Origin: an uncultured Myxococcales bacterium
GTDB taxonomy: Bacteria; Myxococcota_A; UBA9042; CAIXZC01
DNA: 64,000 nucleotides
Direction: 5' to 3'
Assembly: GCA_964593355.1 (NCBI GenBank)
Contig: CAZQHM010000002.1
Coordinates: 99,747-163,746, forward strand
How positions within the stretch are numbered: position 1 is the stretch's first letter; each line of letters begins with the position of its first letter. Below, one piece after another: positions 573 to 57,392 of the stretch. A model generated the notes under the pieces. That model was not told the DNA's origin and made no database searches. It saw nothing but the letters and a program-made list of their open reading frames with translations. The translations under genes were made by a program, and so were the position numbers.

Positions 573-1041
573 GATGGCCTCCGGAAAGAGCAATGATACT
601 GCTTCTCCGAAGAAAGTGTAGTGCCATCTGCATGGACCAGCTCCAAGAGAAGCAGCGGCCCATACGCCCTGCCCCTTCACTCCCCCTCCAAGCTGCCTCT
701 TCCCCACCCGCCTCGCTGCCGCAACCGAACCACCAACCACCAACCACTAACTACCAAATCACCGTTAGCAACGACCACCCACCAATTACAACCCACCCAC
801 AACAGTTCCGATATTTTAGATCGCTTTTTGCATATAGACTCGTGGTTAATAAATGGCGACTCATTGCGCAGCCCCTTCCTTACGGGCGGGGCTCGGAATC
901 GCACTAGCAACCCTTGATTCAATGGCCGTCTTGCAACACCGTATTACTAAACGGCTAACGCCACTATCAGGGACACCCCGGTCATCATCAACCTTCGAAC
1001 TCAATGCCTCTCATTGCAGCTTGGCGCTTCGGTGCCCTGGC

Positions 1042-2226
1042 TTAGAGCTTCAGATGCTTCCGAATACGACTTGCGGCCTCTTCTACCTGCTCCAGGCGAG
1101 GCACCAGCGCGAATCGGACATACTGGTCACCAGGGTTGGTGCCGTCGTGGGCCGTGTCCGTTATCCACGCCCCGGGCGTCACTACCAACGCCAGATCGTC
1201 CGCCAGAAGCTTCTTGGCAAACTCCACCGAATCGTATCCATCCGGTACCCGCTGCCATACATAGAACGTCGCCTCGGGCATCTCAACTGTCAGGCCAGCA
1301 TCACTCAGAGCCCCCAGCAGAACGTCCCGCTTGCTGCGGTAGAGATTGCGCATGTAGGAAACATGCTCTTCGTCCCCTAGCGCTGCTATGGCACCGTCTT
1401 GTATAAAACTCGGAGTTCCCGAATCTATATTTGTCTTAAGTTTCTTCATGTTACCAATTACATTTGCATCCCCCGCTGCCCAGCCAACCCTGTATCCTGT
1501 CATGTTGTTTCTTTTCGACATTGAATAGAATGTAATCACGCCCTCTTTAGCAACTTCAAGAATCGAGTGCGGCTTCTCATCATAATAAATATCAATATAG
1601 CATCCCTCGTCGGCAGCGACAAGGATTTCGTATTTTTGGGCCCAATCCACAAGCTTCTTATAGTATTCAATTGAGGCAATACGGCCCGTGGGCGAATTCG
1701 GATAGTTTATCCAGATAATCTTGGCCTTGCGGGCAATCTCTTCTGGAATCGACTCGAAATCCAACATAAACCCGTTGGCCTCGGTCAAGGGCGCAAAATA
1801 GGGAATCCCCTCCGCAAAGAGGGTGCCACGCTTCATCGGTGGATAGCCCGGAGTAGGGATTATCACCACGTCACCGGGATCGAGATAGGCCTCGGGGAAG
1901 TTGAAGATGGCCTCTTTGGAACCCAGCGTTGCACAAATCTCCGTGGCAGGATCAAGCCGGACGCCGAACCTGCGCTGCATCCATTGGGCCGCCGCTGTTC
2001 GGTACGACTCCATGCCTATGTAGCTGGGATAGCCCGTGCATGCATGGTCATCCACCCCCTTCTGAGTAGCCTTGCGAACCAGTTCCGGCGTTGGGTCCAG
2101 GGGATCCCCAACTCCAAAATCGATGGCCTTGATGCCTCGCTCCTGAAGCTGCGCCACAAGTCTGTCCACTTCAGCAAAGGCGTATCCGCCAAGTGACTGC
2201 AATCGTTTCGATGGAGATATGCTCAT
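1042..2226 (-). CDS. PLP-dependent class I/II aminotransferase, LL-diaminopimelate aminotransferase (DapL)-like
   Basis: N-terminal KRLQSLGGYAFAEVD...IDFGVGDP and the SMSKRNNMTGYRVGW PLP-lysine segment. Start re-placed at internal MSISPSK with an upstream GGAGG. The 150-aa N-terminal extension in the ORF track runs through the GGCGAC repeat and is rejected. Confidence 0.6.
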   Translation of the reverse strand: MSISPSKRLQSLGGYAFAEVDRLVAQLQERGIKAIDFGVGDPLDPTPELVRKATQKGVDDHACTGYPSYIGMESYRTAAAQWMQRRFGVRLDPATEICATLGSKEAIFNFPEAYLDPGDVVIIPTPGYPPMKRGTLFAEGIPYFAPLTEANGFMLDFESIPEEIARKAKIIWINYPNSPTGRIASIEYYKKLVDWAQKYEILVAADEGCYIDIYYDEKPHSILEVAKEGVITFYSMSKRNNMTGYRVGWAAGDANVIGNMKKLKTNIDSGTPSFIQDGAIAALGDEEHVSYMRNLYRSKRDVLLGALSDAGLTVEMPEATFYVWQRVPDGYDSVEFAKKLLADDLALVVTPGAWITDTAHDGTNPGDQYVRFALVPRLEQVEEAASRIRKHLKL

Positions 2227-2289
2227 GTTGGTGCCTCCAAGATTCTTGGGGCCGGATGGTAGTAGAAAGGGCCATGGGAGGCAACACCC

Positions 2290-2600
2290 CTTCACCACTG
2301 GTCCCGCCGGCCAGGGGACAGAGCTATGCCGGCGACGGCGACGGCGACGGAAACGGAAACGGCCACGGGCTGCAGGAGAACGGCGGGACAGTGGGACCGG
2401 GGACAGAGCTATGCCGGCGACGGCGACGGCGACGGGGAACAGGAGAACGGCGGGACTGCGTACGGAGCAATGCCGGCGACGGCGACGGCGACGGAAACGG
2501 GAACGGCGACGGGGAACAGGAGAACGCCTCAGAGCGGCCAGGAAAATCCCCTCTCCCGGTCCGGGAGAGGGCAGGATGAGGGCCTCACCGTGATGGGCGC
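2290..2600. repeat. GC-rich intergenic tandem repeat with three ~90-bp units, each carrying a (GGCGAC)3 core followed by GGAAAC/GGGAAC hexamers
   Basis: Direct reading shows ggcgacggcgacggcgacgg three times with the shared flank gacagagctatgccggcgacgg. All frames are open (poly-Arg and DGDGDGNGNG artefact ORFs). Related to the elements at 53440-53700 and 54060-54260. Confidence 0.7.
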
Positions 2601-3433
2601 CAGCGAGACCAATTCCCGTTTGGAACCGGAATGACGTCGGCCGCACCGGTGAGCAGCATCTCGCCGCACTCAAGGGTGCCCGGCCCCAGGAGCTGGTCCA
2701 GGAGGTTCCTCAGCACTATGGGCGATAGCCCCGGCGTGTGGCTGGTCAACAGAACAAAGGACGGTTTGTCCGAAAGCACCGCCTTGCACCCCTTCAAGGT
2801 GGTCATCAGATCCTTCTCGATCTTGTACAGCTCTCCCTTCTTCCCTCGCCCGAAGGAGGGGGGGTCGAGGATAATGGCATCGTACTTCTTCTGGCGGCTC
2901 TGCTCGCGCACCAGGAACTTGATCACGTCGTCCACGATCCAACGGATTGGGGCAGACTCCAGACCGTTTAGCTGGGCGTTCTCTCGGGCCCAGTCGACCA
3001 TACCCTTGGATGCGTCCAGATGACACACCTTCGCCCCCGATCTGGCAGCGGCCATGGTCGCCCCGCCAGAGTAGGCAAAGAGGTTCAATACGTTGAGCTC
3101 CTGGGAGCGGGACCGCTGGTCGTTGGTCAGGGTTGCGGTGATCCAGTTCCACAGATCCCGGGTCTCTGGGAAGACCCCAAGATGACCGAAATCCGTGGTG
3201 GAGAGTCGCATCTTGATGTCGTTGATGGTAACGACCCAGCTCTCGGGAAGCTTCTCCCGCCCCTTCCAGTTGAGGCCGTCTACTCTATCGAAGGTTGCGC
3301 TGGCACGGCCCCACAGCTCCGGTCTAGCCGGCTCCCAAATGGCCTGCGCACAGGGGCGGGCTAGGACAATGCTGCCGAATCTCTCCAGCTTTGCCCCGTG
3401 CCCGCTATCGACCAGTTCGTACTGATTCATCAC
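2585..3433 (-). CDS. Class I SAM-dependent RNA methyltransferase, RlmI/YccW catalytic-domain-like
   Basis: Motifs [15 protein letters not shown] (SAM binding), [19 protein letters not shown] and [15 protein letters not shown] (DPPxF-like). Confidence 0.6.
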
Positions 3434-3452
3434 ACTCGACCAAAGCGGCCGA

Positions 3453-4526
3453 TTACTCCTGGCTGGCCATGTACTGCAGCAGATCGGCGATACGGCAAGC
3501 GTAGCCGTACTCGTTGTCGTACCAGGTCACCAGCTTGAAGAATCGCTTGTTGTCCTTGAACTCCACGCCGGCGTGGTAGTCGAAAATCGAACTGCGGCTG
3601 TCCCCTACTATGTCCATGCTCACCAGCGGATCCTTGGTGAAGCCAAAAATCCCCTTCATTCCACCCTCCTCCAGAGGCGTGTTCGCTGCTTCTTCAACCT
3701 TGGCAGCAATCTCGTCCAGAGTGGCGTCCTTCTTGAGAATCACAGTCAGGTCAACCACCGAGCCCGTGGGGGTGGGCACGCGGAATGCCATGCCCGTCAG
3801 CTTGCCCTTCATCTCAGGCATCACAAGCCCAACGGCCTTTGCCGCACCCGTGGTGCTGGGAATGATGCTCAAAGCACCGGCGCGGGCCATTCTCAGACGG
3901 TCCGGTGCGGTCTTGTTCACAGGGGTGTCCACCATCTTCTGCGTGCTGGTGTATGCATGAACCGTGGTCATGAGCCCCGTCTCAACACCCCAGTTGTCGT
4001 GCAGAACCTTCACCAGCGGCGCCAAACCGTTGGTGGTGCAGCTTGCATTGGAGATCAGAGTGTGCACCGCTGGATCGTACTCTTTATGGTTCACACCGAT
4101 AACCACCGTCTTCACGTCGGCATCCTGCTTGCACGGAGCCGAGACCAGAACACGCTTTGCCCCGCCGGCAAGGTGCTTCCTTGGATCGTTGGCGGGTTTT
4201 GCCGTATCCACGAATATTCCGGTGGATTCAAGCACATAGTCTACCCCCAGCTCTTTCCAGGGCAGCGTGGCAGGGTCGGTGTTGGCGTAGAATTTGATGG
4301 TCTTGCCATTAATAATTAGATTGTCTTCCTGGACTTCGACGGTGCCCTTGAAGCCTCTGTAAACAGAATCGTATTTCAACATATAAGCAAGAACTTCGAG
4401 CTTGCTAATATCATTTATTGCCACGACTTCGATGTCCGGATACTGATTCGGATTCTCAGCGAGAACCTTCAGTACCAATCTGCCAATTCTTCCGAAACCA
4501 TTGATTGCAATCTTAACCTTCGCCAT
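3453..4526 (-). CDS. gap: Glyceraldehyde-3-phosphate dehydrogenase
   Basis: [11 protein letters not shown]-binding motif, ISNASCTTN catalytic-Cys motif, WYDNEYGY C-terminus. Start placed at [16 protein letters not shown] with upstream AAGGAG. Confidence 0.9.
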
Positions 4527-4879
4527 GATTCCACTCCTTGTTGATGGTCCGTAAGACCGGCCCAAGTTTGTGCTTTTCGGCGCTTTTGTCAAGGCCGAAC
4601 CCCCCGAAATGGAGCCCTATCCTGGATGATAATTTGGTCCACAGAGCGATGGCCGCTAGAATGGCGCCCCTTGGGTTGCCATCTTCCCAGTTCGTGGCTG
4701 AGGAGGCCCCGTTGGTATTTGTCAGTCACGATGTGCCTGCAAATTGGAGGAAGCCCTTGGCTGTGACAGAAGTATCAGGAATAGTGGCGGGTTATGTGGG
4801 TTGGAGTGATATGCTGTTTTGTTGATTAGACCACCACGGTCTGCAACTGAGTCCGGCCAGCCCGGACCCGGGAGGTACG

Positions 4880-7174
4880 ATGCCAGGTTCTATTGCGGTT
4901 GCACTCTGCTTCGGTCTCTTCGCCACAGGCTTCCCCGTTGACCAGGCCTCCGGCCAACTCCGTGACGCCTCCAAATTCGTCATGTCGGCCAGCCAACAGC
5001 AGTCGGCCGGAATGGACCTTACGCCCTTTAGCCAAGGCCATCCCCATTGGAAGCGAGGCGATGAGCTCTGGGCCGATGGAAAGCAGTCCGAGGCGCTCAA
5101 GGCCTTCGCCAAAGCGCTCAAGGGCATGAAGAGGGGAACCGACGAATGGGCCGCCCTGGCCTTGAGAGTGGGGACGCTGCTCAAGGACGCCGACAGATGT
5201 GCCGATGCCCTCCCATGGCTGGACAAAGCAGATATGGAGAGCTTCCTTGGCCGAAACTGGGCCAGATACGAAAAGGGCCAGTGCCTGCGCACCCTGAAAC
5301 GGGGCGACGAAGCGGCCCTCGTATTCCAGCGTGTGGAGCCCTGGCACTCCAATATGGCCCTTGTTACCCGTTGCCTCTGCTTTGCCCTCCTGGAGTCGGG
5401 AAAACGGGACGAGTTCCTTCTTTGTGCAGCGCAGCATCGAGAGAAATTCGGATCAGATCCCAAGCTGCTCGGCGACGAGGCCCGAATCATGAAAGAGTCC
5501 GGCCATGCTGCCAAAGCAGCGGATCTTCTCCGCATGATCGCCTCCAAACACCCCACTTCCAGCGCGGCAAGGGGGGTTCTCAAAGAGCTCAAAGAGCTGG
5601 CCCCAAAGGCTGGTCCTTCAGCAGAACTGACCAAGAGCGAGTGGGTGAGCCGGGCGCTGGGGTTCTACGATAGGCACAAGTTCAAGAGTGCCCTGGGCGC
5701 TGCCGAAATCGTCCTCGATACGGCCACCCCGGCCAGCCGGGAGTGGTGCGATGCGGCGGCAGTCAAGGGTGCGGCCCTGGCACGCGCCAGAGAACAGACC
5801 AAATCGTTGCCTCACTTCGAAACGTGGCTCGAAAAATGCCCCACCATGCTCTCGGATATCTACCTCTACAGAGCCTCCGAGGCCGCCAGAGCTGCCGGGC
5901 GACCCGACATGGTGAACCGCTTCGTTGATGCGATGCTCAAGCACTTCCCAACCTCTCGATACTGCGACGACGTGCTGCTCTTTCTGGCCAGGGCCGAAGA
6001 GCGGGCCGGCAACAGCAAGGCCCGGGAGAAGGCTCTGAATCTTGTGCTGGAGCAGTATCCTACCGCTGACATGGCTTCCGAGGCAGCATTCCAACTGCTC
6101 TTCCCCGCCTTCCTGGACAAGCAGTACCAGAAGGTCATCGACCTGGCCCAGAAGTACATCCCGTTGCTGCCTCAACGGGAAGACTACCGCACCGATGGTA
6201 GGCTGGCTTACTGGCTTGCCAGATCCCTCACCAAGAAGGGCAAAAAGGCCGCAGCAAGAGAGGTCTACGGTGAGATTCTCCGGGACTACCCCCTGAGCTG
6301 GTACGGGCTGCTGGCCTACCTACGCCTGGAAGAGACCAAAAAGGGGCTGGGCGAGAAAGAAGTGGCCCGGGTCACAGCGGCCTCCATGCCCCTGCTGCCC
6401 TCAATGTCTCAAGTGCTGGCCTCGGCTCCTTCGCACCTTCCGAATCTGCAGGCTGGAGCCCTGCTGCTCAAAGCCGGGCTTACATCCGAGGCCCGCTCGG
6501 AGTTCACCCAGGCCTTCGCAATCCTGGGCTCCGGCGATGTCTCAGTGCGCCTGCTTGAGGCGGCCCTCTATCACGTCAGTGGACATATCTCCATCTCCCA
6601 CCAGATAATGAGAAGAGCAATCCCCGAGCACGCCTACACCTGGCCCAAAAAGGAAGACGACCGCTGGTGGCTTGTGGCCTATCCCCAGGGCTACCCCGAG
6701 AAGCTCAAAGCCGAAGCCAAGCGCCAGGGAGTACCATGGTCCTTCGTCATGGCAGTCATGCGCGAAGAGTCTGGCTTCAACCCCGAAATCGTCTCCTACG
6801 CAAACGCCTTCGGCCTGCTTCAGATCCTTCCCAAAACCGCCTCGGATGTGGCGAAAAAGAAGATCACCGGCGAGCAGCTCAAGAACCCGGATATCAACAT
6901 CCCCATCGGTGTTGAGTACTTCGCCTGGCTGCTGAAACGCTTCGAACACCCGGCCCTGGCCGCTGCTGGATACAACTCGGGCCCAGGCGGCGTTCAGAAG
7001 AGCTTCGGACGCTACGACGGACATCAACTGGACGAGTTCGTGGAGAGCATCCCCTTCGACCAGACCCGACGATACACCAAACGGGTGGTCTCGTCGGCCT
7101 GGCGCTACCACGTTCTTTATGGAGACTCTGACTGGAGTAAGATCGGATTGAAAATCAAGCGGCCCAAGAAGTAG
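4880..7174 (+). CDS. slt: Soluble lytic murein transglycosylase (Slt70-like): superhelical TPR-like N-domain plus C-terminal SLT catalytic domain
   Basis: C-terminal MREESGFNPEIVSYANAFGLLQILPKTA...AAAGYNSGPGGV carries the ES / GLMQ-like / AYNAG lytic transglycosylase motifs. N-terminal signal-like segment. GGGAGG upstream. Confidence 0.8.
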   Translation: MPGSIAVALCFGLFATGFPVDQASGQLRDASKFVMSASQQQSAGMDLTPFSQGHPHWKRGDELWADGKQSEALKAFAKALKGMKRGTDEWAALALRVGTLLKDADRCADALPWLDKADMESFLGRNWARYEKGQCLRTLKRGDEAALVFQRVEPWHSNMALVTRCLCFALLESGKRDEFLLCAAQHREKFGSDPKLLGDEARIMKESGHAAKAADLLRMIASKHPTSSAARGVLKELKELAPKAGPSAELTKSEWVSRALGFYDRHKFKSALGAAEIVLDTATPASREWCDAAAVKGAALARAREQTKSLPHFETWLEKCPTMLSDIYLYRASEAARAAGRPDMVNRFVDAMLKHFPTSRYCDDVLLFLARAEERAGNSKAREKALNLVLEQYPTADMASEAAFQLLFPAFLDKQYQKVIDLAQKYIPLLPQREDYRTDGRLAYWLARSLTKKGKKAAAREVYGEILRDYPLSWYGLLAYLRLEETKKGLGEKEVARVTAASMPLLPSMSQVLASAPSHLPNLQAGALLLKAGLTSEARSEFTQAFAILGSGDVSVRLLEAALYHVSGHISISHQIMRRAIPEHAYTWPKKEDDRWWLVAYPQGYPEKLKAEAKRQGVPWSFVMAVMREESGFNPEIVSYANAFGLLQILPKTASDVAKKKITGEQLKNPDINIPIGVEYFAWLLKRFEHPALAAAGYNSGPGGVQKSFGRYDGHQLDEFVESIPFDQTRRYTKRVVSSAWRYHVLYGDSDWSKIGLKIKRPKK

Positions 7175-7189
7175 ACTTACCCACGGCGC

Positions 7190-10100
7190 TTAGCCCCCGC
7201 AAGTTACCTTTATAGTATAGCTGCCTTCTTCGCCATTATAGCCGTCAATTACTATGAAGTAGGTGTTGCCTGCAACAGCATCGATGGTGATGTCGTTCAA
7301 GCCCCAGTCCATGCACTCCGAGGCCAGGCACGATCCGTCAGAGGCTTCGCTCAACACCATAATGTCGAGATCGGCACTCTCGTCGCTGAGCGTGAAAGTC
7401 ACTGGGCCCGTGGCTTCGGCCTGGAAGATATAGGTGTACTCGGCGCCGGGGTAGTCGAAGAAGTTGCACCCATAGTTGTCCAGAAGATCCGTTGCGCCAG
7501 GATTCAAGGTCGACCAGGAGTCAGATGAATCACAGTAGAGGGTCCAGTCCGGCACGCACTGGTCAAAGGGACACGCCTCGCTGCCTGGCAGGCAGTCCTC
7601 GCTGTCTTCGCAGTCTACAAGCCCGTCCTGGTCATCGTCGATGCCGTCGGAGCAGTTCTGTTCGGTCAGTGGCACGCAGCCCACGGTGATGGTGAAGAGG
7701 CCGGTTCCCGGCAAGGCGCCACCCTCGAAGCCGTCGACCACGAAGAAGTAGGTCTTGCCCGCCTCAGCCTGGAACGATGCCGTCGAATAGTCAAAGGCTA
7801 TGCAGGCTGTGGGCTGGCAACCGGTTCCCGAAGACTCAAGGATCATGACGTCGGTGTCGGCTTCTTCCTCGGAGAGGGTCACAGTTACCGTGGCGTCGTA
7901 TTCTGCTGTAAAGCTGTATGTGTATTCAGGAGCAGAATAAGTAAATATAGAGCAGGGATAGCTTTCTATGACATCAGTGCTGCCTGTCCAGGAGTTGTCC
8001 CATCGGTCGGTTCCACCACATACCAGTGTCCAGTCGGGTTGGCACACGCCGCAAAGCTGCGTTCCGCCGGGCTGGCATACACCTTCCAGGCAGAAGTCTC
8101 CTTCGGTGCACGGGTCGTTGTCATCGCAGGCGCCGTCGAAGTTGGCGGCTATGCAGCCCACCACGGGGTCGCATGAATCGGTGGTGCACTGGTTGCCGTC
8201 GTTGCAATCGGGTGCGCCGGTGCCGGTGCAGAGGCCCTGCTGGCAGAGGTCCGTGAGCGTGCAGGCGTTGGAGTCGTCACACAGTCGGTCATCGGGGGCA
8301 TTGATCTTCTCGCACAGCCCCGTGGCCGGAACGCACTCGGTGCGCTGGCACTGGGTATCGGAGGAGGTGTCGCAGGTGACGATAGAGTCGGGATCGATGA
8401 GGCACTTGTAGCCAATGCAGCGGTAGACACCATTGCAGAGGTCTTCGTCGTCACGCTCGGCACAGTCGGCATCAACGGTGCATGTGCACTCTGGGTTGGG
8501 CTGGCCCTTGCATACGCCTTGAACGCAGATGTCGTCCAGCGTGCAGTAGTCGTTATCGTTGCAGGAGTTGTTGTTGTAGGTGTAGACGCAGCCTATTGCG
8601 CTGCTGCAGCCGTCCGACGTGCAGATGTTGCCGTCGTCGCAGACGATGTTCTGGCCCTTGCACAGGCCCCCTACGCAGGTGTCGTTCTTGGTGCAAGCGT
8701 TGGCATCATCGCAGGTGGTAGCATCGGCAGCGGCCTTGACTTCGCAGGCCCCAGTCTCGGGGATGCAGGCCACGGTCTGGCATGAGGTGGTGGGGACGTC
8801 GGCGCAATCCACGACCGAACCCTCTTTCACCACGCAGCGCTTGTTGATGCAACTCATGACTCCGTTGCACAGATCACCGTCGTCAACGCAATCCTCGTCG
8901 GTGTTGCAGTTACAGGTGGGATCGGGGTCGCCCACGCAGGCGCCGTTGACGCACTTATCGTTGATGGTGCAGGGGTCGCCATCGCCGCAATTCCCCTCTT
9001 TGGGTGCATTCACGCATCCCGTTGCAGGATCACAAGAGTCCTGGGTGCAGGCGTTGTTGTCGTTGCAGGCCACTGGCAGACCAACGCAAGCGCCCGCAGA
9101 GCAGTAGTCGTCTTTGGTGCAGGCGTTGGCGTCGTTGCAGGCCGTGCCGTTGAGTGCAAGCTTGTTCTCGCACTCGCCGGTGGAAGGATTGCATGCGTTG
9201 GTCTTGCAAGGATTGTCCGTGCCAGGGCACATGACAATAGAGGTAGGATCGTTCTTGCACTGCCCTGAGATGCACTTCACAAGACCGTTGCAGAGATTGC
9301 CGTCTTCGAACTGCTGGCACTCAACGTCGCTGGTGCAGCCGCTGCAGTCGGGCAAGGGTTCGCCTGTGCAGACGCCCTGCTTGCAGCCGTCGTCCTTCGT
9401 ACAGAGGTCGCCGTCGTTGCAGGAGGTTCCGTCGGGGGCCGAGGTCTTGGTGCAGCCGGTCGCCGGGTCGCAACTGTCCGTGGTGCACGGGTTGCCGTCG
9501 TTGCAGTTCACCGTAGTGCCCAGGCACGTCCCGGCCGTACACGTCTCATCCTTGGTGCAGGCGTTTCCATCGCTGCACGGCTTGCCGTTCTCCAAGTTCT
9601 TGTACTTGCACTGGCCGTCCTGAGGATCGCAAGAGACGCTCTTACAGGCCACCTCGGGCATGTTGCTGCAGTCGACCGCACTCGTAGGATCGGCCACGCA
9701 CTCCTGGTTGATGCACTTCACAAGACCGTTGCAGAGATTGCCGTCGTCGTACTTCACGCAGTCGGCGTCCCCCGTGCATGGATCGCATATGGTCTCGCCG
9801 CCAACACAGGCCCCATCCTTGCAGGCGTCGTCCTTGGTGCACTTGTTGCCGTCGTCGCAAGGCTGGGTGTTGTTGACGAACTGGCATTCGCCAGTTTCGG
9901 GGTTGCACTGGTCGTCAGTGCAGATACTACCGTCCGAGCATGCTTTGGGCTGCCCCTTGCACTGCCCTTGCAGGCACTGGTCGTTGTCCGTGCACTTGTC
10001 ACCATCATCACAAATCTTCCCGTTGGTCGAATCGATGACCTGACATACCTTGTCTACACAGGCAATCTCCTGACACGGACCGGGAAGCCCCTTGCCCGTG

Positions 10101-43670: not shown

Positions 43671-44339
43671 TTACACCTTATGCATGGCGCTGAAGATGCC
43701 TTCGTGCATCACCAGAATCTTGACGCAACCCAGCCTGGCCTCCTCTTCAAGCAACTTCTCCTTGAAGACACGGAAGGAGACCCCCTTTGTAGCCAGACCC
43801 TGAAGGTCGACCACAAAGATCAACGAGAAATAGTCCCCCACAATGGTCTGGTTCATATCCGCAAGATCACCGCCGCACCCGGCAACGGCCGAGGATATTG
43901 CCGCCACAACCCCGGGGCGATTCCTGCCCACGATGGTCACCAAGGCTCTGCTCAAGGCAGTGTCTCCCTCGTGCAGAGACGCCAGCGCATCGTTGAGCTG
44001 GTTGCGATCAACCTTGCTCGGAGGAGCGGCCACAGTAGCTGCGGTCGCTACAGCCGACCCACTGCCCCCTAATGTAGAAGTACCCCCCGATGGCATGGTG
44101 CCCGCCGAAGCCTTGGCCCCAAGAACCTCCTTCACCACCAGATCCTCGATAAGCCTGGCCAGCTCTGCTGTGGATGCCGGCATCTCTGCTGTGGTCTTCT
44201 CCGTGGAATAGACCAGCTTGATGCCCTTGCGCATGGCAAACTCCCTTGCCGATGGCGTCAGGAGCATTTCCCGATCGACAACCACTGTGCCATCTTTGAC
44301 CAGAGCTTCCAGTTCGTGCTCAGTTATGGCTCTTTTCAT
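43671..44339 (-). CDS. ACT-domain protein (UPF0237-like) with an extra ~45-aa N-terminal domain and a low-complexity linker
   Basis: C-terminal [48 protein letters not shown] is an ACT fold. The UPF0237+UPF0210 gene pairing is conserved. N-terminus is [44 protein letters not shown]. Confidence 0.65.
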
Positions 44340-44671
44340 TTATTCTTCCTATTCACATTAACGGAATACTTATCTACTATTGCTACAACGGCAGCATCTA
44401 TGGGGCGGGTTGGTTTGGCGTTGGGCGCCAGCTCCGGCTCCACGGCCATTCTTCCCGCATGCCCATAAGCAACAATCACATCCTCACCCACACCAGCCCC
44501 CAAGATATCGGCAACAACGACACCGTCACCTGCTCCAGTGGGCGGCGCATCGGGGTCACTGGATAGGTCCGCCAGATGGTATGGCCTCACCACCAGAAAC
44601 TTCATCCCTTCAAGCCCTTCCCACTTCACCGTGGACCAGACGGTTCCAACAACCCGTGCCAGAAACATCAC
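44336..44671 (-). CDS. EutN/CcmL/PduN family BMC vertex (pentamer) protein, paralog 1
   Basis: MMFLARVVGTVWSTVKWEGLEGMKFLVV...VVADILGAGVGEDVIVAYGHAGR...PIDAAVVAIVD fits the EutN/CcmL consensus. 4-nt overlaps with both neighbours. Confidence 0.8.
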   Translation of the reverse strand: MMFLARVVGTVWSTVKWEGLEGMKFLVVRPYHLADLSSDPDAPPTGAGDGVVVADILGAGVGEDVIVAYGHAGRMAVEPELAPNAKPTRPIDAAVVAIVDKYSVNVNRKNK

Positions 44672-44982
44672 ACCCCTCCCTGGGTATCGAAGAGCTGCTC
44701 CAAATCCGTATATCCATCAACTATTCGGCATATTGCTGCTTCACAAAGTATTGATGAATCATTCTCCAAGCCAAACACTTTTCTTGCTCCGCTGCCCCAC
44801 GTCACCACCACCAGATGGCCCGTATCAGCCCCCATTCGGTCTCGAGCCACCACCACTTCACCCGTAGGGAGCAGCCGTCCATCACTCTGCTCCAGTCCAG
44901 CCACAAGCAGCATCTTGGCCCCGCTCAGTCGCTCATGCTTCTTGGTTGCCCAAACTTCGCCAATGACCTTGCCAAGCATCAT
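44668..44982 (-). CDS. EutN/CcmL family BMC vertex protein, paralog 2
   Basis: MMLGKVIGEVWATKKHERLSGAKMLLV...GSGARKVF...ILCEAAICRIVDG. Start overlaps the paralog-3 stop (ATGATG). Confidence 0.75.
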   Translation of the reverse strand: MMLGKVIGEVWATKKHERLSGAKMLLVAGLEQSDGRLLPTGEVVVARDRMGADTGHLVVVTWGSGARKVFGLENDSSILCEAAICRIVDGYTDLEQLFDTQGGV

Positions 44983-45368
44983 GGCGTCGCCTCTTCCTGA
45001 GAGTTGCCGCTGGCCGCTCCTGGTGAAAGCAGTTCCAAGGTGGCAATAGGATGATCTTCCCGAAGACGGAAGGGAATTTCTGGGTCCGTAAGGGCCGAAG
45101 CATCTATTTGGGTCCGGTCTACAATGGCCATGACGCTGGCCTCTATGGGGGTGCGAGCATCGCCCGCTTGCCAGCGTCCGGGGGCTCCCATGCAAACCAC
45201 CACGTCCTGCCCCTCTTCGGCACCCACCTTGTCCACGGCTATCAGGTTGTCTACGGCATGGGAGGGACGATACCAGAAATAGGGGCGCACGATGACCATC
45301 TTCAGATCGGCTAGCCGCTGGCTCTTCCTGGTTGCCCAGACTGTCCCCACTACGCTGCCGAGAATCAT
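44979..45368 (-). CDS. EutN/CcmL family BMC vertex protein, paralog 3 (C-terminal ~35-aa extension)
   Basis: MILGSVVGTVWATRKSQRLADLKMVIVRPY...AVDKVGAEEGQDVVVCMGAPGR...PIEASVMAIVD. Confidence 0.75.
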   Translation of the reverse strand: MILGSVVGTVWATRKSQRLADLKMVIVRPYFWYRPSHAVDNLIAVDKVGAEEGQDVVVCMGAPGRWQAGDARTPIEASVMAIVDRTQIDASALTDPEIPFRLREDHPIATLELLSPGAASGNSQEEATP

Positions 45369-45700
45369 CTCCTATCCCCGCCCAGCAGCGCTCTGTCCAC
45401 CTCACAAGAGTCTACAATGGCCACCACCACATCTTTGACCGGCATGCTCTGACCCACCGTGAGATCACGCACCCTCGAACCATGGGCCACCAGAACGTAC
45501 TCACCCACCCCAGCTCCAAGCTGGTCCACGGCCAGGCGCACGGCACCCCCTAATACGGGTGCTGGCCCATCGGCCGACAGCGCCAGCGTCCCCCTGCCCG
45601 CCGTCATGGCCAGAGGCTGAACCTTGACTATCTTGGCACCACGGAGATTCTCGCTCTCCTTGGCGCCCCATACCGTACCCGTGATACGACCGAGCAACAT
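45365..45700 (-). CDS. EutN/CcmL family BMC vertex protein, paralog 4
   Basis: MLLGRITGTVWGAKESENLRGAKIVKV...AVDQLGAGVGEYVLVAHGSRVR...PVKDVVVAIVD. GGAGGGAAG RBS. Confidence 0.75.
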   Translation of the reverse strand: MLLGRITGTVWGAKESENLRGAKIVKVQPLAMTAGRGTLALSADGPAPVLGGAVRLAVDQLGAGVGEYVLVAHGSRVRDLTVGQSMPVKDVVVAIVDSCEVDRALLGGDRR

Positions 45701-52133: not shown

Positions 52134-53387
52134 TCACTTCCGTAGGCCCATCCCCCCAGCCCGAATCTGCTCCACCGCACGACAAATAGCCCCTACCGCA
52201 TAGTCAATCTCCTCCTCGGTATTCTCGTGGCTCAAAGAGACCCGTATGGACTCCCGAGCCTCCTCCTGGCTGCGCCCCGCTGCCATTAGAACCCTCGATG
52301 GCTCGTCGCTCTGGCTAGCACAAGCAGACCCAGTGGAGACCGCTACCCCCTCTATGTCCAGAAGAATCATGAGCATCTGACCGCTCACCCCACTGAAACT
52401 GAGGTTGCTGGTGTTGGGCAGCCGAGTGGCCTCGCTGCCGTTGACCCGAAGGCCATCAACCATAACGCTCAGTCTCTCCTCCAAGGTGTCCCGCAGCTTC
52501 GCTACATACAGCGCACGCTCCACCATCTTCTCGCTGGCCTCCTCAGCCGCTCTCGCCATCCCCGCTATCCCCGCTACGTTCTCCGTCCCCGCCCTCTGCC
52601 CACGCTCCTGCTTGCCCCCCAGGAGCAGAGCCGGCAACTTCACGCCACGTCGTTTCAACAGCAGACCCACTCCCCGAGGACCGTGAAACTTGTGCGCCGA
52701 GACCGTCATCAGATCGACCCCCAGAGCACCAAAATCCACGGGCACTTTGCCCACTGCCTGCACCGCATCCACATGCATCAGAACCCCAGCTTCACGAGCT
52801 ATGGCCGCAAGCTCCCTGATAGGCTGGATGACCCCCAGATCGTTGTTCGCCAGCATCACCGAAACCAGATTGGTGATACACGGCTGCTCAGATATCTCCA
52901 TCCCCCCAGCAGCCGTGTACCCTGAGCGAGGCCAAGGCCGAGTCGAAGGGGGGGAGAGATTGGTGAGCGGTGGTCTAGCCCTCAGTACCCCCGATAACGC
53001 CGAAACGTCAACTACTCCACGGGCGTCCACCGGCAACAAACTCACCTCCACTCCCATTCCCTCCAGATGCCTGCAAGTTGAGTAGACCGAGGCGTGCTCT
53101 ATGCCGCTGGTGACTATGTGGCACGCTCCACCGTGAAGCTCCGCAATGCCCCTCAGAACCTGGTTGTTGCTCTCCGTCCCGCTCCCCGTGAAGAAGACCT
53201 CCTCCGCCGATGCACCCAGGAATCGGCCAAGAGCGTACCTCGCCTTGTCCAGTATCCTCCGCCCCTCTGACCCAAAATCGTGGATGCTGGAAGGGTTCCC
53301 CCAACACCGCTCCATGGTCTCCGCTACAACCTGGGTCACCCCACGGGAAGGTCTCGTCGTCGCATTGTTGTCCAGATACACTCTCAT
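52134..53387 (-). CDS. Cysteine desulfurase (NifS/IscS/YrvO-like), carrying a ~35-aa insertion relative to canonical IscS
   Basis: PLP lysine SAHKFHGPRG. Active-site STGSACAS. Start at MRVYLDNNATT. The upstream ORF extension runs into repeat B and is rejected. Confidence 0.8.
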   Translation of the reverse strand: MRVYLDNNATTRPSRGVTQVVAETMERCWGNPSSIHDFGSEGRRILDKARYALGRFLGASAEEVFFTGSGTESNNQVLRGIAELHGGACHIVTSGIEHASVYSTCRHLEGMGVEVSLLPVDARGVVDVSALSGVLRARPPLTNLSPPSTRPWPRSGYTAAGGMEISEQPCITNLVSVMLANNDLGVIQPIRELAAIAREAGVLMHVDAVQAVGKVPVDFGALGVDLMTVSAHKFHGPRGVGLLLKRRGVKLPALLLGGKQERGQRAGTENVAGIAGMARAAEEASEKMVERALYVAKLRDTLEERLSVMVDGLRVNGSEATRLPNTSNLSFSGVSGQMLMILLDIEGVAVSTGSACASQSDEPSRVLMAAGRSQEEARESIRVSLSHENTEEEIDYAVGAICRAVEQIRAGGMGLRK

Positions 53388-53439
53388 GACTTCATTTCCC
53401 ACCAATCCGGTGGGTTTTCTACTATTGTCCGAGCCCCGG

Positions 53440-53700
53440 GTCAAGAGGAGCCGTCGCATCCAGGTGCGGATCCGCTGCCGGGGAGAGGGACGTCCAACGA
53501 GCGCCCTTCGTGGCCGTAGTCCCTCCGAAGCGACAGCGAAGGTGGGTTGACGTCGACGTCGACGTCGCCGAACGGTCCAGCAACGTGACTGAGCCCATTT
53601 GCTCCCCGGTTCGGGAACCGAACCTGTCGCATCCAGGCGCGGATCCGCTGCCGGGGAGCTGGACGTCCAAACTCCGGCCTGGGGCCGATTCGCCCCGTCG
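53440..53700. repeat. Structured GC-rich repeat element B: two ~50-nt direct repeats (each holding the palindrome GCGGATCCGC) flank a core with (GACGTC)3 and the hairpin GGTTCGGGAACCGAACC
   Basis: Direct comparison with 54106-54215 in inverted orientation gives ~80% identity over ~110 nt. It also shares a hexamer core with 2290-2600. Confidence 0.7.
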
Positions 53701-53740
53701 GGACAGAAATGGTGTTCGCTGATTCTGGTTGGAAGGCTGG

Positions 53741-54001
53741 TTATTTCTTCTCAAGCTCGCAGGCTGGTTCAACCTTGTAATATTCACAAAGTTTCCTGCA
53801 TTTTTCCTTATCTCCCTTAGTGCAAGCTTCCATACCTATCAACTTCAGTTTGGCACATGCTGCCTCGTCCTTATCCACATCGCATGTCTCAACACATGCT
53901 CCCCACTCGCCCTTATCCAGGCAATCGCCCTTCTTGCTGTTGCATCCAAAACCGAAGCTAATAACCACAAGCAACACCACTACACCAAATCCTCTCTTCA
54001 T
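53741..54001 (-). CDS. Small Cys/Lys/Glu-rich lipoprotein (86 aa; 10 Cys), encoded in a low-GC island flanked by inverted repeats
   Basis: AGGAGG RBS. Signal MKRGFGVVVLLVVISFGFGC. The mature 66-aa peptide has nine Cys. Local GC is roughly 43% against ~60% for the window. Confidence 0.6.
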   Translation of the reverse strand: MKRGFGVVVLLVVISFGFGCNSKKGDCLDKGEWGACVETCDVDKDEAACAKLKLIGMEACTKGDKEKCRKLCEYYKVEPACELEKK

Positions 54002-54059
54002 GTCCCTTCCTCCTGATAGGTGTCCATTGGCCAGACTGCCAGCCCGGTGCCCATTATCT

Positions 54060-54260
54060 ACTACGCTTCCCCATGGAAGGCAACGGGCTTGACGCCCGCG
54101 GGTGCGGATCCCAAACCGGGGAGCAAATGGACTCTGTCACGCTGGTACACGGTTCGGCGACGGCGACGGCGACGTCAACCCGCCTTTGGCGGGGCTACGG
54201 CCACGAAATGCACCCGGCTGACGTAGCGGTCCCCGGCAACGTAACCGCACCCACGCCCCG
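54060..54260. repeat. Repeat element C: inverted copy of the core of element B, with (GGCGAC)3 in place of (GACGTC)3
   Basis: The reverse complement of 54106-54215 aligns to 53497-53612: ttcgtggccgtag...gggttgacgtcgccgtcgccgtcgccgaac...agtccatttgctccccgg. Confidence 0.7.
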
Positions 54261-54327
54261 CGGCATCAGATAGTCCCGGCTCATCAGGCAATTATGGGAT
54301 CTCAAAGATAATAAAGCGTTAATACGG

Positions 54328-55827
54328 CTACTTACAGACAACTGCAGTATAGACCGCCCGGTCCTCGGTCCCTGGCCAATATCCGGCCCCCGGCGACGAA
54401 GCCCAAAATGCCGAGGAACCACCTCCATCCAAGTTCAGAGCCTCCACACACCCCTGCGATATCATGTAGTCCGCCAGCTCCGGCAAAGTGAATCCTCTTG
54501 CCTTAACTGTATCGTTTTGCGCTGCTAAAACCATAATACTTCCGTCGTCTAATATGCATATGGCACTCCTGGGCAGTGGAGAGCTGGGGCTTATGCCCGA
54601 GGTTCCGAAGTCTTCTAACTCATACTGCTGCCAAAATACGTTCTGCCCCCCGGAAACCAGGATGGGACCAGCACAGACCACGTCCGAAGCCTCGGGAAAC
54701 AACCCCGGACCCCACGTCCCTCCTCCCAGGAAATTCCTGCCCATAGAGACCCCTATCCCCGCTGTCCGCTCCTCCTTGTCGTACCACAGACAGCCCCTCG
54801 GCCCCTTCACATTCCCCGATGGACTCTCATAGCCCAACTGCCCCTTCGCATAAGAGACCGGCCCCTGGCCCGACGCAAAATAGCCGCCGTTCACCGCCCC
54901 CCTCGCCCCAACCACCGGCAATGCCATGTTCTGGACAGTCTTGGCCGACCCGCTCCCCGTAACTACCAAATCATGCTCCAGGTCCGCCGTGGGAAACCGC
55001 ACCCTCCTGACGGTGAACCCGTTCCCGTTCGAGTCCGTCTTGCTCTGACTGTCAACAAGAAAGGCCCCCTGGATAGTTATCTTGACCTCCGACGTTGCCT
55101 CGCACCCAGACTCCCCAACCACCTTGACGGAGATGGTTCTTTCAATACCAGGAGTATTAAAAACATATTGATAGTCATACGATGATGTAGAAACTTGTTT
55201 GCTACCCAAGACGTACAGTTCGTCTGCTGTAAAAGTCAGCTTTCCTGGCACGCAATTAGAACTTCCATAGAAACTAATCGCTTTTCCAACAACCCCCTTG
55301 TTGTTGTCTGTCTTAATCGTTACATACGGTTCCTGCGCGGAAAGGTCCTCTTCCCCCGAATCGGGCCAATCAACATCAACCTCCTCCGCTTGATCCCCCG
55401 GTCCAACCAAATCGCCCAAATCCCAAGCCCCGTCCAAGCCATCCCCTGCATCGGCCACCTGGTCCTGACCCCACTGATCCCCATGGCCCAAATCGGCAAG
55501 CTCCTGAAGATCCACCGTCACCAGTTCCCAAGCGTCTACGCTCCCTTGGTCGACACTCCCTTGATCACCAGTCACACCATCCTGTAAGCCCGCCCCGTCC
55601 AACACAACTCTGGCGTCAGAAACCGTGTCGTCCTTGCCCAATCCCCCTTCACCCCAGAAGTCCCATGAGCCGGCATCCGGGAACTTCACCTCGCCCGTGA
55701 CCACATCAGACCCACCACCACCCCCGCACCCCAGAACTGACACGATACACAGCAGCAAGGGATAAGCCCCAAAACAGACTTTGCCCCCTTCAACCGCAGA
55801 ATCCTTTGGCGCTGAAAACCCAGCCAT
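54328..55827 (-). CDS. Secreted phosphodiester glycosidase family protein (DUF2233/NAGPA-like C-domain) with an acidic N-terminal region
   Basis: The C-terminal LNLDGGGSS and GGYF..GQGP segments are typical of the phosphodiester glycosidase family. Signal with lipobox-like LGCGGGGG. Confidence 0.55.
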   Translation of the reverse strand: MAGFSAPKDSAVEGGKVCFGAYPLLLCIVSVLGCGGGGGSDVVTGEVKFPDAGSWDFWGEGGLGKDDTVSDARVVLDGAGLQDGVTGDQGSVDQGSVDAWELVTVDLQELADLGHGDQWGQDQVADAGDGLDGAWDLGDLVGPGDQAEEVDVDWPDSGEEDLSAQEPYVTIKTDNNKGVVGKAISFYGSSNCVPGKLTFTADELYVLGSKQVSTSSYDYQYVFNTPGIERTISVKVVGESGCEATSEVKITIQGAFLVDSQSKTDSNGNGFTVRRVRFPTADLEHDLVVTGSGSAKTVQNMALPVVGARGAVNGGYFASGQGPVSYAKGQLGYESPSGNVKGPRGCLWYDKEERTAGIGVSMGRNFLGGGTWGPGLFPEASDVVCAGPILVSGGQNVFWQQYELEDFGTSGISPSSPLPRSAICILDDGSIMVLAAQNDTVKARGFTLPELADYMISQGCVEALNLDGGGSSAFWASSPGAGYWPGTEDRAVYTAVVCK

Positions 55828-55898: not shown

Positions 55899-57392
55899 TC
55901 AGCTGCGAAGTCCCAGTACTGAATCAACCCTGTCCCTTATCGACTTCAGCAGCTCGGGCGTGGTGCCCACATCCTTTCCCCAGCTGGGAACCACCTTGCT
56001 CAGATTGGCCCGAAATCCCTTCGTCGCCGCATCACCCGGAAAACACCTGTGTATGATCTCCAGCATCGTCTCCGCTGCCGTCGACGCCCCCGGCGAGGCA
56101 CCCAGCAATGCCGCCAGAGACCCATCCGCTGCCACCACAACCTCGGTCCCGAACTCCAAACGCCCACCCCTCCGGGCATCGCCTTTGATAATCTGAACCC
56201 TCTGCCCAGCCTGAGCCAACTCCCAATCGTCCCCAACCGCCAGAGGATAGTACTCTCTCAGTGCTGCCAGACGCTGATTCTGCGACTGCATAACCTGACC
56301 TATCAAATACCGGGTGAGATCCATGTTATCCCTGGCCACCGCTAGCATTGGTAGTATATTGTGATGTCTTAAAGACATAAACATATCTAAATAACTGCCC
56401 TGTTTCAAATATTTCGTGGTGAATCCTGCGAACGGGCCAAACAACAAAGCGGGCTTGCCGTTCCAGTATCGCGTATCCAAGTGCGGCACAGACATGGGCG
56501 GGGCACCAATGGAGGCCTTGCCATACACCTTCGCACCGTGGCGTTCAACGACCTTGCTGTTCTTACACACAAGCCACTGACCACTCACCGGGAATCCGGC
56601 ATACCCCCTGGCCTCGGGAATCCCTGCCTTCTGCAACAGCGGCAAGGCCCCACCTCCGGCACCCAGAAAAACGAACCCCGCCTGTACATCGAACGGCTCC
56701 CCTGTGCCCAAATCAGTCCCCTGAACCAGCCAACCCCCATCCCCGCTACGGCGAACCGAAGTGACATCGTGCTTCACTTTCACGGCTACACGGCCCGAAC
56801 GGCGCATGGCAGCGAAAAGCTCCCTGGTCAGCATCCCGAAGTCGACATCGGTTCCACGCCTGACCCTGGTTCCAGCGATAAGATCGTCGGGGCCCCTCCC
56901 CTCTATGACCAGCGGCGCCCACTCCAGTAACTCCGCCCTCTCCGTGCTGTACTCCATCGCCTGGAACATCGGATGCTTCGAAAGCGCCTCATGCCTCAGA
57001 TGCAAATAGTCGATGTTGTTGCGCCCCCACACGAAGGCCACGTGCGGTACATTATTAAGAAAGGCCCGAGGATTGGGAATCCGCCCGCTCTCTACCAGAT
57101 GCGCCCAGAACTGCAAGGAGACCTCGAAGGAGGAATTCACCTTCAACGCCTTGCTTATGTCCACCCTTCCAGCAGTGACCTCCGGCGTGTAATTCAGCTC
57201 GCAGTTGCCCGCATGCCCCGTGCCGGCATTGTTCATCGACTGGCTGCTCTCCCAAGCTATCTCGGGCAACCGCTCCAGCACCACTATCCTGATGCCCGGT
57301 ATCAACTCTGAAAGCATCGCACCAAGAGTGGCACTCATTATCCCGCCCCCAACAAGAATCACGTCGCTTCGCTCCACAGAACTGCCTCTCAT
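55899..57392 (-). CDS. mqo: Malate:quinone oxidoreductase
   Basis: DVILVGGGIMSATLGAMLSEL FAD-binding N-terminus. About 500 aa with MQO-like conservation throughout. GGGGGA RBS. Confidence 0.85.
   Translation of the reverse strand: MRGSSVERSDVILVGGGIMSATLGAMLSELIPGIRIVVLERLPEIAWESSQSMNNAGTGHAGNCELNYTPEVTAGRVDISKALKVNSSFEVSLQFWAHLVESGRIPNPRAFLNNVPHVAFVWGRNNIDYLHLRHEALSKHPMFQAMEYSTERAELLEWAPLVIEGRGPDDLIAGTRVRRGTDVDFGMLTRELFAAMRRSGRVAVKVKHDVTSVRRSGDGGWLVQGTDLGTGEPFDVQAGFVFLGAGGGALPLLQKAGIPEARGYAGFPVSGQWLVCKNSKVVERHGAKVYGKASIGAPPMSVPHLDTRYWNGKPALLFGPFAGFTTKYLKQGSYLDMFMSLRHHNILPMLAVARDNMDLTRYLIGQVMQSQNQRLAALREYYPLAVGDDWELAQAGQRVQIIKGDARRGGRLEFGTEVVVAADGSLAALLGASPGASTAAETMLEIIHRCFPGDAATKGFRANLSKVVPSWGKDVGTTPELLKSIRDRVDSVLGLRS

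Follow-up and report, generated by a model that had tools for sequence, protein, structure and literature searches.

A previously undescribed family of GC-rich miniature transposons beside a small cysteine-rich lipoprotein gene in an uncultivated Myxococcales bacterium

In a 64,000-nucleotide (nt) stretch of DNA from an uncultured Myxococcales bacterium (GenBank assembly GCA_964593355.1, contig CAZQHM010000002.1, positions 99,747 to 163,746; hereafter, the window), two related elements in inverted orientation, B and C, bracket a single gene for an 86-amino-acid (aa) cysteine-rich lipoprotein upstream of a nifS-mnmA-thiF operon. B and C are very probably two independently inserted copies of one non-autonomous DNA transposon of the MITE (miniature inverted-repeat transposable element) type, with a short stub beside B as the remnant of a third copy. 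The assignment to a MITE family is made because the elements are small, within the ~50–600 bp of a MITE, and non-coding, carry terminal inverted repeats and target-site duplications, and occur in multiple copies, the features by which bacterial MITEs are recognized (PMC6382973; PMC10969869). The family is previously undescribed, comprises two subfamilies, and occurs in this uncultivated bacterium and its near relatives. The first-pass annotation of the locus had called the repeats MITE-like, a suggestion borne out by copies that are dispersed and have terminal inverted repeats and duplications of 9 bp, and had taken repeats and gene together for a mobile cassette or a repeat-bounded acquired gene, a proposal that did not survive. 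The elements and their duplications are located as follows (window positions):

53462–53625, + strand: MITE copy B (B-type subfamily), 164 nt, GC 0.66, nhmmer E = 1e-43
54100–54252, − strand: MITE copy C (C-type subfamily), inverted relative to B, 153 nt, GC 0.67, nhmmer E = 5e-46
53453–53461, no strand: left target-site duplication of B, GTCGCATCC, a 9/9 match to 53626–53634
53626–53634, no strand: right target-site duplication of B, GTCGCATCC, a 9/9 match to the left copy
54091–54099, no strand: target-site duplication of C, lower side, GACGCCCGC (duplicated part ACGCCCGC), equal to 54253–54261 but for one C in a run of C
54253–54261, no strand: target-site duplication of C, upper side, ACGCCCCGC, from sequence comparison with 54091–54099
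53635–53670, + strand: truncated third copy, B-type, first 36 nt only (left terminal repeat plus 13 nt), nhmmer model positions 3–38

A repeat search of the window returned an inverted pair at 53525–53624 and 54101–54200 (100 nt, 81% complementary) that extends further at 53463–53530 and 54184–54251. Aligned globally at their true ends, with C reverse-complemented, B and C are identical at 121 of 153 ungapped columns (79%) and differ by one 11-nt indel (blastn, E = 1.7e-27), reproducing in an actual alignment the inverted identity of ~80% first noticed by reading. The elements had been located correctly at 53497–53612 and 54106–54215, but their true ends are wider (53462–53625 and 54100–54252). 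A core pattern of 30 nt has two occurrences in the window and none in 100 shuffles, and the GC content of the elements is 0.66–0.67 compared to 0.574 for the window. Within the 64 kb, blastn and nhmmer recovered B, C, and one 36-nt fragment only. Copy B runs from the left terminal repeat AGGTGCGGATCCGCTGCCGGGGA to the right end TCCCCGGTTCGGGAACCGAACCT and contains a GTAG with a hairpin module and a (GACGTC)3 tract. The pre-insertion junctions were reconstructed as GGAGCC-GTCGCATCC-AGGCGCGG for B and TTG-ACGCCCCGC-GGCATC for C.

Using a 17-mer scan of Joint Genome Institute (JGI) metagenome contigs, followed by alignment and nhmmer, 83 loci were returned, with full or near-full copies at 10. 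Nine of the carriers are separate contigs of metagenome Ga0302238 (L010, L014, L015, L020, L043, L050, L052, L079, and L081) and the tenth, L028, derives from Ga0116144; L028 and L081 are one locus, L014 ends at a contig edge, and L061 is the window locus itself. In all, the element is present at at least 10 distinct loci, with different flanking sequence at each. The remaining 17-mer loci were rejected as a related family, being chance matches within conserved protein-coding genes, as were weak nhmmer or blast extensions at L008, L025, L027, L029, L041, L046, L056, L067, L068, L076, L078, and L080.

Across copies, the element is 153–211 nt long, typically about 153–164 nt, and ends in imperfect 23-nt terminal inverted repeats (GGGTGCGGWTCCGTTGCCGGGGA); in both B and C, 17 of 23 positions agree between the left 23 nt and the reverse-complemented right end. 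The outermost 8 nt, GGGTGCGG/CCGCACCC, are near-invariant across 11 copies, and when copies were compared with 40-nt flanks, similarity stopped exactly outside GGGTGCGG...CCGCACCC. Target-site duplications of 9 bp are perfect at six distinct loci, including B, and near-perfect at three more:

L028 / L081: AACCCTCCC, 9/9
L050: GGCAATCAT, 9/9
L052: CTATTCTTG, 9/9 once the end coordinate is corrected by 1 nt
L079: AAACCTCGT, 9/9
L043: GATGCGAAA, 9/9
Window B: GTCGCATCC, 9/9
L010: (A/G)ACGGCGAA, 8/9
L015: 7/9
Window C: ACGCCC(C)GC, 8/9 plus a one-base indel

As judged from sequence, these duplications are the signature of transposition by 9-bp staggered target cuts. The first-pass annotation had proposed counting copies and looking for target-site duplications across the genome; carried out on metagenomes, the count yielded dispersed copies with 9-bp duplications, while the window itself holds two full copies and a fragment.

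The copies fall into two subfamilies, B-type with a 14-nt hairpin loop and C-type with a 3-nt loop, that are set apart by a loop insert of 11 nt and about 21% substitution. Copy B is 93–95.5% identical to the copies on L010, L014, L052, and L079, and C is 94–96% identical to those on L028, L050, and L081. One or two additional ~38-nt internal units occur in L015, L020, and L043, and the interior includes a variable tract, (GTCGCC)3 / (GACGTC)3. The copies are intergenic, located between long open reading frames (ORFs); at 153–211 nt they are too short for a transposase, and their longest stop-free stretches (51–54 aa) are not in a frame conserved between B and C. Elsewhere in the window, spaced 20-nt GCGACG-type repeats (2330–2349, 2415–2434, and 2474–2493) match the (GTCGCC)n tract of C exactly; lying within an ORF region (2330–2494), they are probably a low-complexity coding repeat and not a MITE fragment.

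The MITE-bearing contigs resemble the window in tetranucleotide composition (ranks 1, 2, 4, 5, 6, 8, 9, and 10 among 120 loci; r = 0.885–0.96), and a strain variant of the window locus, 99.7% identical and with B in place, comes from Ga0116144, which is the source of L028 as well. Because of these ranks and this variant, the family is taken to be multi-copy in this lineage. An exact 21-mer, GAGNCCATTTGCTCCCCGGTT, had 0 matches in 185,579 species-representative genomes, and therefore no carrier is found among them. A single match among viral contigs (L156) was due to chance, and plasmids returned only (GACGTC)n-type low-complexity matches. The contigs L028 and L081 are mosaic relative to each other: blocks ~99–100% identical, the MITE and its duplication included, alternate with a strongly diverged block of ~250 bp, and all similarity is gone beyond position 1164 of L028, suggesting strain recombination or a chimeric assembly. 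Selection on the MITE, considered on the grounds that this copy seemed better kept than its flanks, was rejected, as the adjoining flanks are equally identical and the contigs mosaic.

A second repeat at B has a simple composition. The first-pass annotation had described two direct repeats of ~50 nt with the palindrome GCGGATCCGC inside the element, and a repeat search did recover a direct repeat (53453–53497 and 53626–53670; 45 nt, 93% identical) with GCGGATCCGC in each unit; one unit comprises the left duplication and the first 36 nt of B, the other the right duplication and the adjacent stub. The stub, which directly abuts the right duplication of B, matches the first 36 nt of B at 33 of 36 positions, with similarity ending beyond, and B and the stub share a terminal A where all other copies have G. 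Given this match and the layout of the duplications, the 45-nt direct repeat consists of the duplication of B followed by the left end of another, truncated copy. B may have inserted right beside an older sister copy that was truncated later, or a local tandem duplication of the duplication and element may have been followed by a deletion; both histories fit the data equally well. The perfect palindrome GCGGATCCGC is peculiar to window copy B, with GCGGATCCGT or GCGGTTCCGT in other copies. The hairpin GGTTCGGGAACC is present as first described, within the right terminal repeat of B; like GCGGATCCGC, it is a part of the terminal repeats of B that is not kept as a perfect palindrome in other copies.

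Under the proposed mechanism, a transposase encoded elsewhere in the genome, probably of the DDE type, would bind the terminal repeats and mobilize the element in trans, and 9-bp staggered cuts at the target would leave a 9-bp direct duplication at every insertion. The intergenic spacers on either side of the lipoprotein gene would have received insertions by chance, or by local hopping or an end-adjacent target preference, and the gene itself would be a resident and not cargo of the elements.

Several observations weigh against this interpretation. A search of the window and 1.5 Mb of loci recovered no autonomous insertion sequence (IS) with matching terminal repeats (≤5 mismatches). By its length, the 9-bp duplication would suit several IS families (IS1, IS4, IS5/IS903, IS256, ISAs1, and ISLre2). 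An empty pre-insertion site was not recovered for any copy, with all six independent assemblies of the locus carrying whichever elements they cover, and the copy number of this very genome is an extrapolation from metagenome populations nearly identical to it. The element is GC-rich (0.66–0.67), unlike the usual AT-rich bacterial MITEs (PMC6382973). Lastly, three insertion events fall within about 800 bp and none in the rest of the 64-kb window, a clustering with a probability of ~0.4% by a crude estimate that assumes uniform insertion into about 5.5 kb of intergenic DNA, and so chance alone is not a full account. Local hopping or an end-adjacent target preference would explain the clustering.

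Each copy folds into a long closed hairpin (−85 to −107 kcal/mol), and both strands of each copy are predicted to be able to do so. The single-sequence folds are only 1.1–2.25 standard deviations better than shuffles. The RNAalifold consensus of 11 copies consists essentially of the terminal-repeat stem and small hairpins, with a double change at the terminal pair only and a covariation term of +0.76. An invariant GTAG is followed by an internal hairpin that pairs CCCGCC/GGCGGG in one subfamily and CCCACC/GGTGGG in the other, with the pair broken in window B. This compensatory difference is a single evolutionary event and does not establish an RNA function, though it gives a hint of the hairpin module's importance to the element. 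In Rfam, only a tRNA reached the gathering threshold in the whole window, and nothing was returned at E ≤ 10 in 53350–54350.

The gene enclosed by B and C is located as follows:

53741–54001, − strand: gene for an 86-aa cysteine-rich small lipoprotein (P0001), orphan family, from homologue comparison (nonsynonymous distance, dN, 0.15)
54009–54014, − strand: Shine-Dalgarno sequence AGGAGG, 7 nt upstream of the ATG, read from the sequence

The small ORF with its strong AGGAGG ribosome-binding site, lipoprotein signal, and nine cysteines was confirmed as originally called, with all nine cysteines in the 67 residues from Cys20 onward. Read from the sequence, the signal combines an n-region with K/R, a hydrophobic core, and Cys20. 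The window lipobox (GFGC) is atypical, and relatives have LAGC, VVGC, FAAC, LTGC, ALGC, or LTAC at the aligned position. The only close homologue among 5.8 billion proteins is P0002 (68% identical). Across 67 mature residues, P0001 and P0002 codons comprise 20 that are identical, 32 with synonymous-only differences, and 15 with non-synonymous differences; the nine cysteines are conserved, and with synonymous differences saturated (pS 0.97) at a dN of 0.15, strong purifying selection and therefore a real gene are indicated. An exhaustive profile search of 1.84 billion (1.84e9) representatives returned a family of eight proteins at E ≤ 1e-3. The seven aligned members each possess a signal peptide ending in Cys and share the scaffold C-x6-C ... 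AC-x3-C ... C-x-K ... C ... C. An AlphaFold2 model of P0001 is all-helical (predicted local distance difference test score, 79), and no informative sequence or fold match was found for P0001. Four disulfides among Cys27–Cys81 are predicted from this scaffold. The product is best described as a putative small, disulfide-stapled helical lipoprotein of an orphan family; the metal-binding or bacteriocin-like role floated by the first-pass annotation is conjectural.

The GC content of the coding sequence had been estimated at ~43%, far below its surroundings; it is indeed low, with a value of 0.456, and GC at third codon positions (GC3) is 0.49 compared to 0.61–0.75 in 14 other window genes. Low-GC patches (0.43–0.49) also occur at 55100–55300 (a NAGPA-domain gene) and 56200–56500 (the mqo gene), and the peptide gene is thus not the only low-GC stretch in the vicinity. 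The gene for P0002, with a normal GC of 0.56, is found on contig L004, where its neighbours are an SNF-family transporter gene on one side and an unrelated gene on the other, with no element copy near, and a more distant homologue, P0128, occurs on four contigs (L152–L155), none with element copies. On L153, a Logan contig, the P0128 gene (222–491) adjoins a CRISPR adaptation/effector cluster (799–6491) that includes Cas2, a Cas4-Cas1 fusion, and a GSU0053-family protein, and the P0128 protein is also present in ENA samples that contain the window organism. Judging from these loci, the lipoprotein gene is independent of the elements, a resident though compositionally atypical gene. Its low GC3 is compatible with acquisition, and nothing ties such an acquisition to the MITEs.

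The operon begins immediately beyond B, with its first gene located as follows:

52134–53387, − strand: nifS-type cysteine desulfurase (Pfam Aminotran_5; 417-aa gene call), first gene of the nifS-mnmA-thiF operon

Measured upstream from the nifS ATG (53387), B is 75 nt away. The identity of this NifS is ≤45% to any GTDB species representative and ≤57% to anything in 5.8 billion proteins; a search of the species representatives returned matches 28–45% identical across many phyla and no usable orthologous locus. The nearest NifS proteins, P0006 and P0007, are 56–57% identical, and in the nearest NifS loci, L148 and L149, nifS-mnmA is kept, as is thiF in L149, with a different gene upstream of nifS and neither a small lipoprotein gene nor a MITE. 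At this NifS distance, the only thing the comparison can speak to is that the gene and the MITEs are absent upstream of nifS; the insertion at the head of the operon proposed by the first-pass annotation agrees with that absence, tempered by the remoteness of the relatives. Contigs L148 and L004 share a sequencing run, suggesting that in the relative represented by L148 the peptide gene lies away from nifS, and the position of the gene here appears, from these contigs, to be lineage-specific.

Between B and the nifS ATG lie a sigma-70-like TTGACC-N17-TAGAAA (about 53445–53417), identified by eye though not flagged by a consensus scan as a promoter-like site, and a conserved hairpin; the nifS promoter is probably intact. 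The hairpin, CCCACCGGATTGGTGGG at 53398–53414 in the nifS 5′ untranslated region, is kept as CCACCGTATTGGTGG in L148 (~9955–9975; NifS 56% identical). It was flagged by the scan as a + strand terminator and is a possible operator or leader hairpin for nifS-mnmA. A 441-aa nifS ORF in one public record is an artefact, as the call starts at an ATG inside the duplication of B and the real start is the methionine of MRVYLDNNATT at 53387.

The window NifS is also interrupted in frame by about 33 aa that no homologue has (52867–52966, − strand). At the DNA level, about 80 nt lie between perfect 10-nt direct repeats, TCACCAATCT, and the insert ends in a 10–12-bp hairpin, TACACGGCTG...CAGCCGTGTA; it looks like the footprint of a small palindromic mobile element inserted in frame, as in the Rickettsia palindromic elements. 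Near the same place (window ~52876), L061 (Ga0209605_1096588; 1122–1204) follows the window without a difference as far as GCCGTGTA, departs from it precisely where the right-hand TCACCAATCT joins, and continues as GGGTGGTGCCAAGACCCGCCGGCAGCCTCCGGGGAGGTGGACCCC until the contig end. The sequence GGGTGGTGCCAAGACCCGCCGGCAGCCTCCGGGGAGGTGGACCCC begins like the MITE terminal repeat, sharing CCGGGGAGG-GGAC, and was not found elsewhere in the sequences compared; it may be a related element in the nifS of a population variant or an assembly chimera.

In the mobile-cassette reading, both inverted copies and the low-GC gene would have arrived as one unit. Two related inverted elements bracket a single gene of divergent GC3, the gene is missing upstream of nifS in L148 and L149, insertions are clustered at the locus, and pairs of MITEs can mobilize the DNA between them (PMC10969869). 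MITE-flanked class 1 integrons of Acinetobacter (Gillings 2009 and Domingues 2011, as cited in PMC10969869) are alike in that two MITEs bracket a coding segment; as presented there, however, the integron MITEs are identical with one outer duplication per unit, while B and C are 79% identical, belong to different subfamilies, and have separate duplications, 9/9 for B and 8/9 with an indel for C. On the outer sides of the B...C unit, the flanks GTCGCATCC and ACGCCCCGC agree at only 2 of 9 positions. No copies flank the closest homologue of the gene, a second B-gene-C unit was not found in any search, and none of the other MITE loci has the gene. Because of the separate duplications, the different subfamilies, and the P0002 and P0128 loci without copies, B...C is not regarded as a cassette; the reading is already contradicted by the duplication pattern and is very improbable. 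An integron attC array was dropped without a formal test; attC sites within an array are direct repeats, and the repeats here are inverted with no cassette array present.

It is about equally improbable that the elements are structured RNAs (a cis-regulatory leader, terminator, or small RNA) conserved for their fold, with mobility secondary or absent. The stable hairpins, the compensatory change between subfamilies, and the persistence of core blocks across subfamilies about 79% identical would fit such a role, but the folding z-scores are modest (−1.1 to −2.25), and among the 36 RNAalifold pairs there is no compensatory change except at the terminal base. Further, B and C are oppositely oriented on a co-directional string of genes, the 9-bp duplications at unrelated loci show transposition, no Rfam family matches the elements, and the consensus scan of the region found no sigma-70-like promoter and only two terminator-like sites, both outside the elements. 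Least probable of all are repetitive extragenic palindromic (REP) units or bacterial interspersed mosaic elements (BIMEs), spread by a REP-associated tyrosine transposase (RAYT; Y1/HUH) and not by a DDE transposase. The GTAG directly before a GC-rich hairpin in every copy resembles the head-plus-palindrome of REP. REP/RAYT elements are, though, units of 20–40 nt without target-site duplications, and the mobile unit here is at least 153 nt with 23-nt terminal repeats and 9-bp duplications. A GTAG REP is likewise contained in QMITE2 of Coxiella (PMC10969869). An invertible segment, a still less likely variant, would account for inverted repeats around a gene, the geometry of an invertible switch, but the arms are only 79% identical and a single orientation occurs in all independent assemblies (L001, L002, L003, L061, L150, and L151). 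With B and C as independent MITE insertions, there is a slight chance that their clustering is non-accidental. The element might prefer to insert beside its own ends (as B beside the older stub), in which case pairs could mobilize intervening genes, or the GTAG-hairpin core might be kept as an insulator or processing site in read-through transcripts, separating the acquired lipoprotein gene from the essential nifS-mnmA-thiF operon.

Among known systems, QMITE2 of Coxiella burnetii, which is intergenic, multi-copy, and non-coding, has 7–9-bp direct repeats, 23–29-bp terminal inverted repeats, and a 113–145-bp core; it folds into a long hairpin with a GTAG palindrome inside (PMC10969869, Fig. 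2; PMC5896051). The element here is nearly identical in architecture and is likened on that basis, the hosts being from unrelated phyla; the GTAG palindrome of QMITE2 is, however, a known IS1111 target. MITEAba12 of Acinetobacter (PMC6382973) is similarly non-autonomous, and it too has terminal repeats that are imperfect and a target-site duplication of 9 bp. Its mobilization is in trans, its parent is ISAba12, and copies with intact duplications are taken as recent; at 113 bp and 78% AT, it has 16-bp terminal repeats and transposition has been observed experimentally (PMC6382973), compared to 153–211 nt, 66% GC, and mobility inferred from sequence only for the element here. A variable tandem repeat in the interior is shared with a MITE of Porphyromonas gingivalis that contains a minisatellite (PMC4596501). 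That MITE differs in sequence, size, and host, and the copies of the element here are few. The Correia elements of Neisseria (~100–155 bp) are intergenic, have terminal repeats of ~26 bp, are transcribed into hairpins, and can alter neighbouring expression, with documented effects through promoters, RNase III sites, and binding of IHF. Correia elements duplicate TA, whereas the element here duplicates 9 bp.

Apart from the elements, the gene calls and Pfam place four tandem EutN/CcmL-family (microcompartment vertex) genes at window ~44336–45700 (L001 9939–11303), downstream of an FG-GAP protein of 1196 aa; so many consecutive paralogues are unusual.

For annotation, ORFs that read through the copies are spurious, and the element breaks short-read assemblies of this lineage. 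The Cys-rich helical lipoproteins constitute a minor orphan family. The current understanding of mobile elements is unchanged by what is ordinary mobile-DNA litter, though a further MITE family, divided into two subfamilies and characterized by modular internal hairpins and a tract of variable repeats, is added from a deep-branching, uncultivated bacterium without a close genome representative, and the element offers a handle for the search for a parent IS and for strain typing in metagenomes of anaerobic communities.

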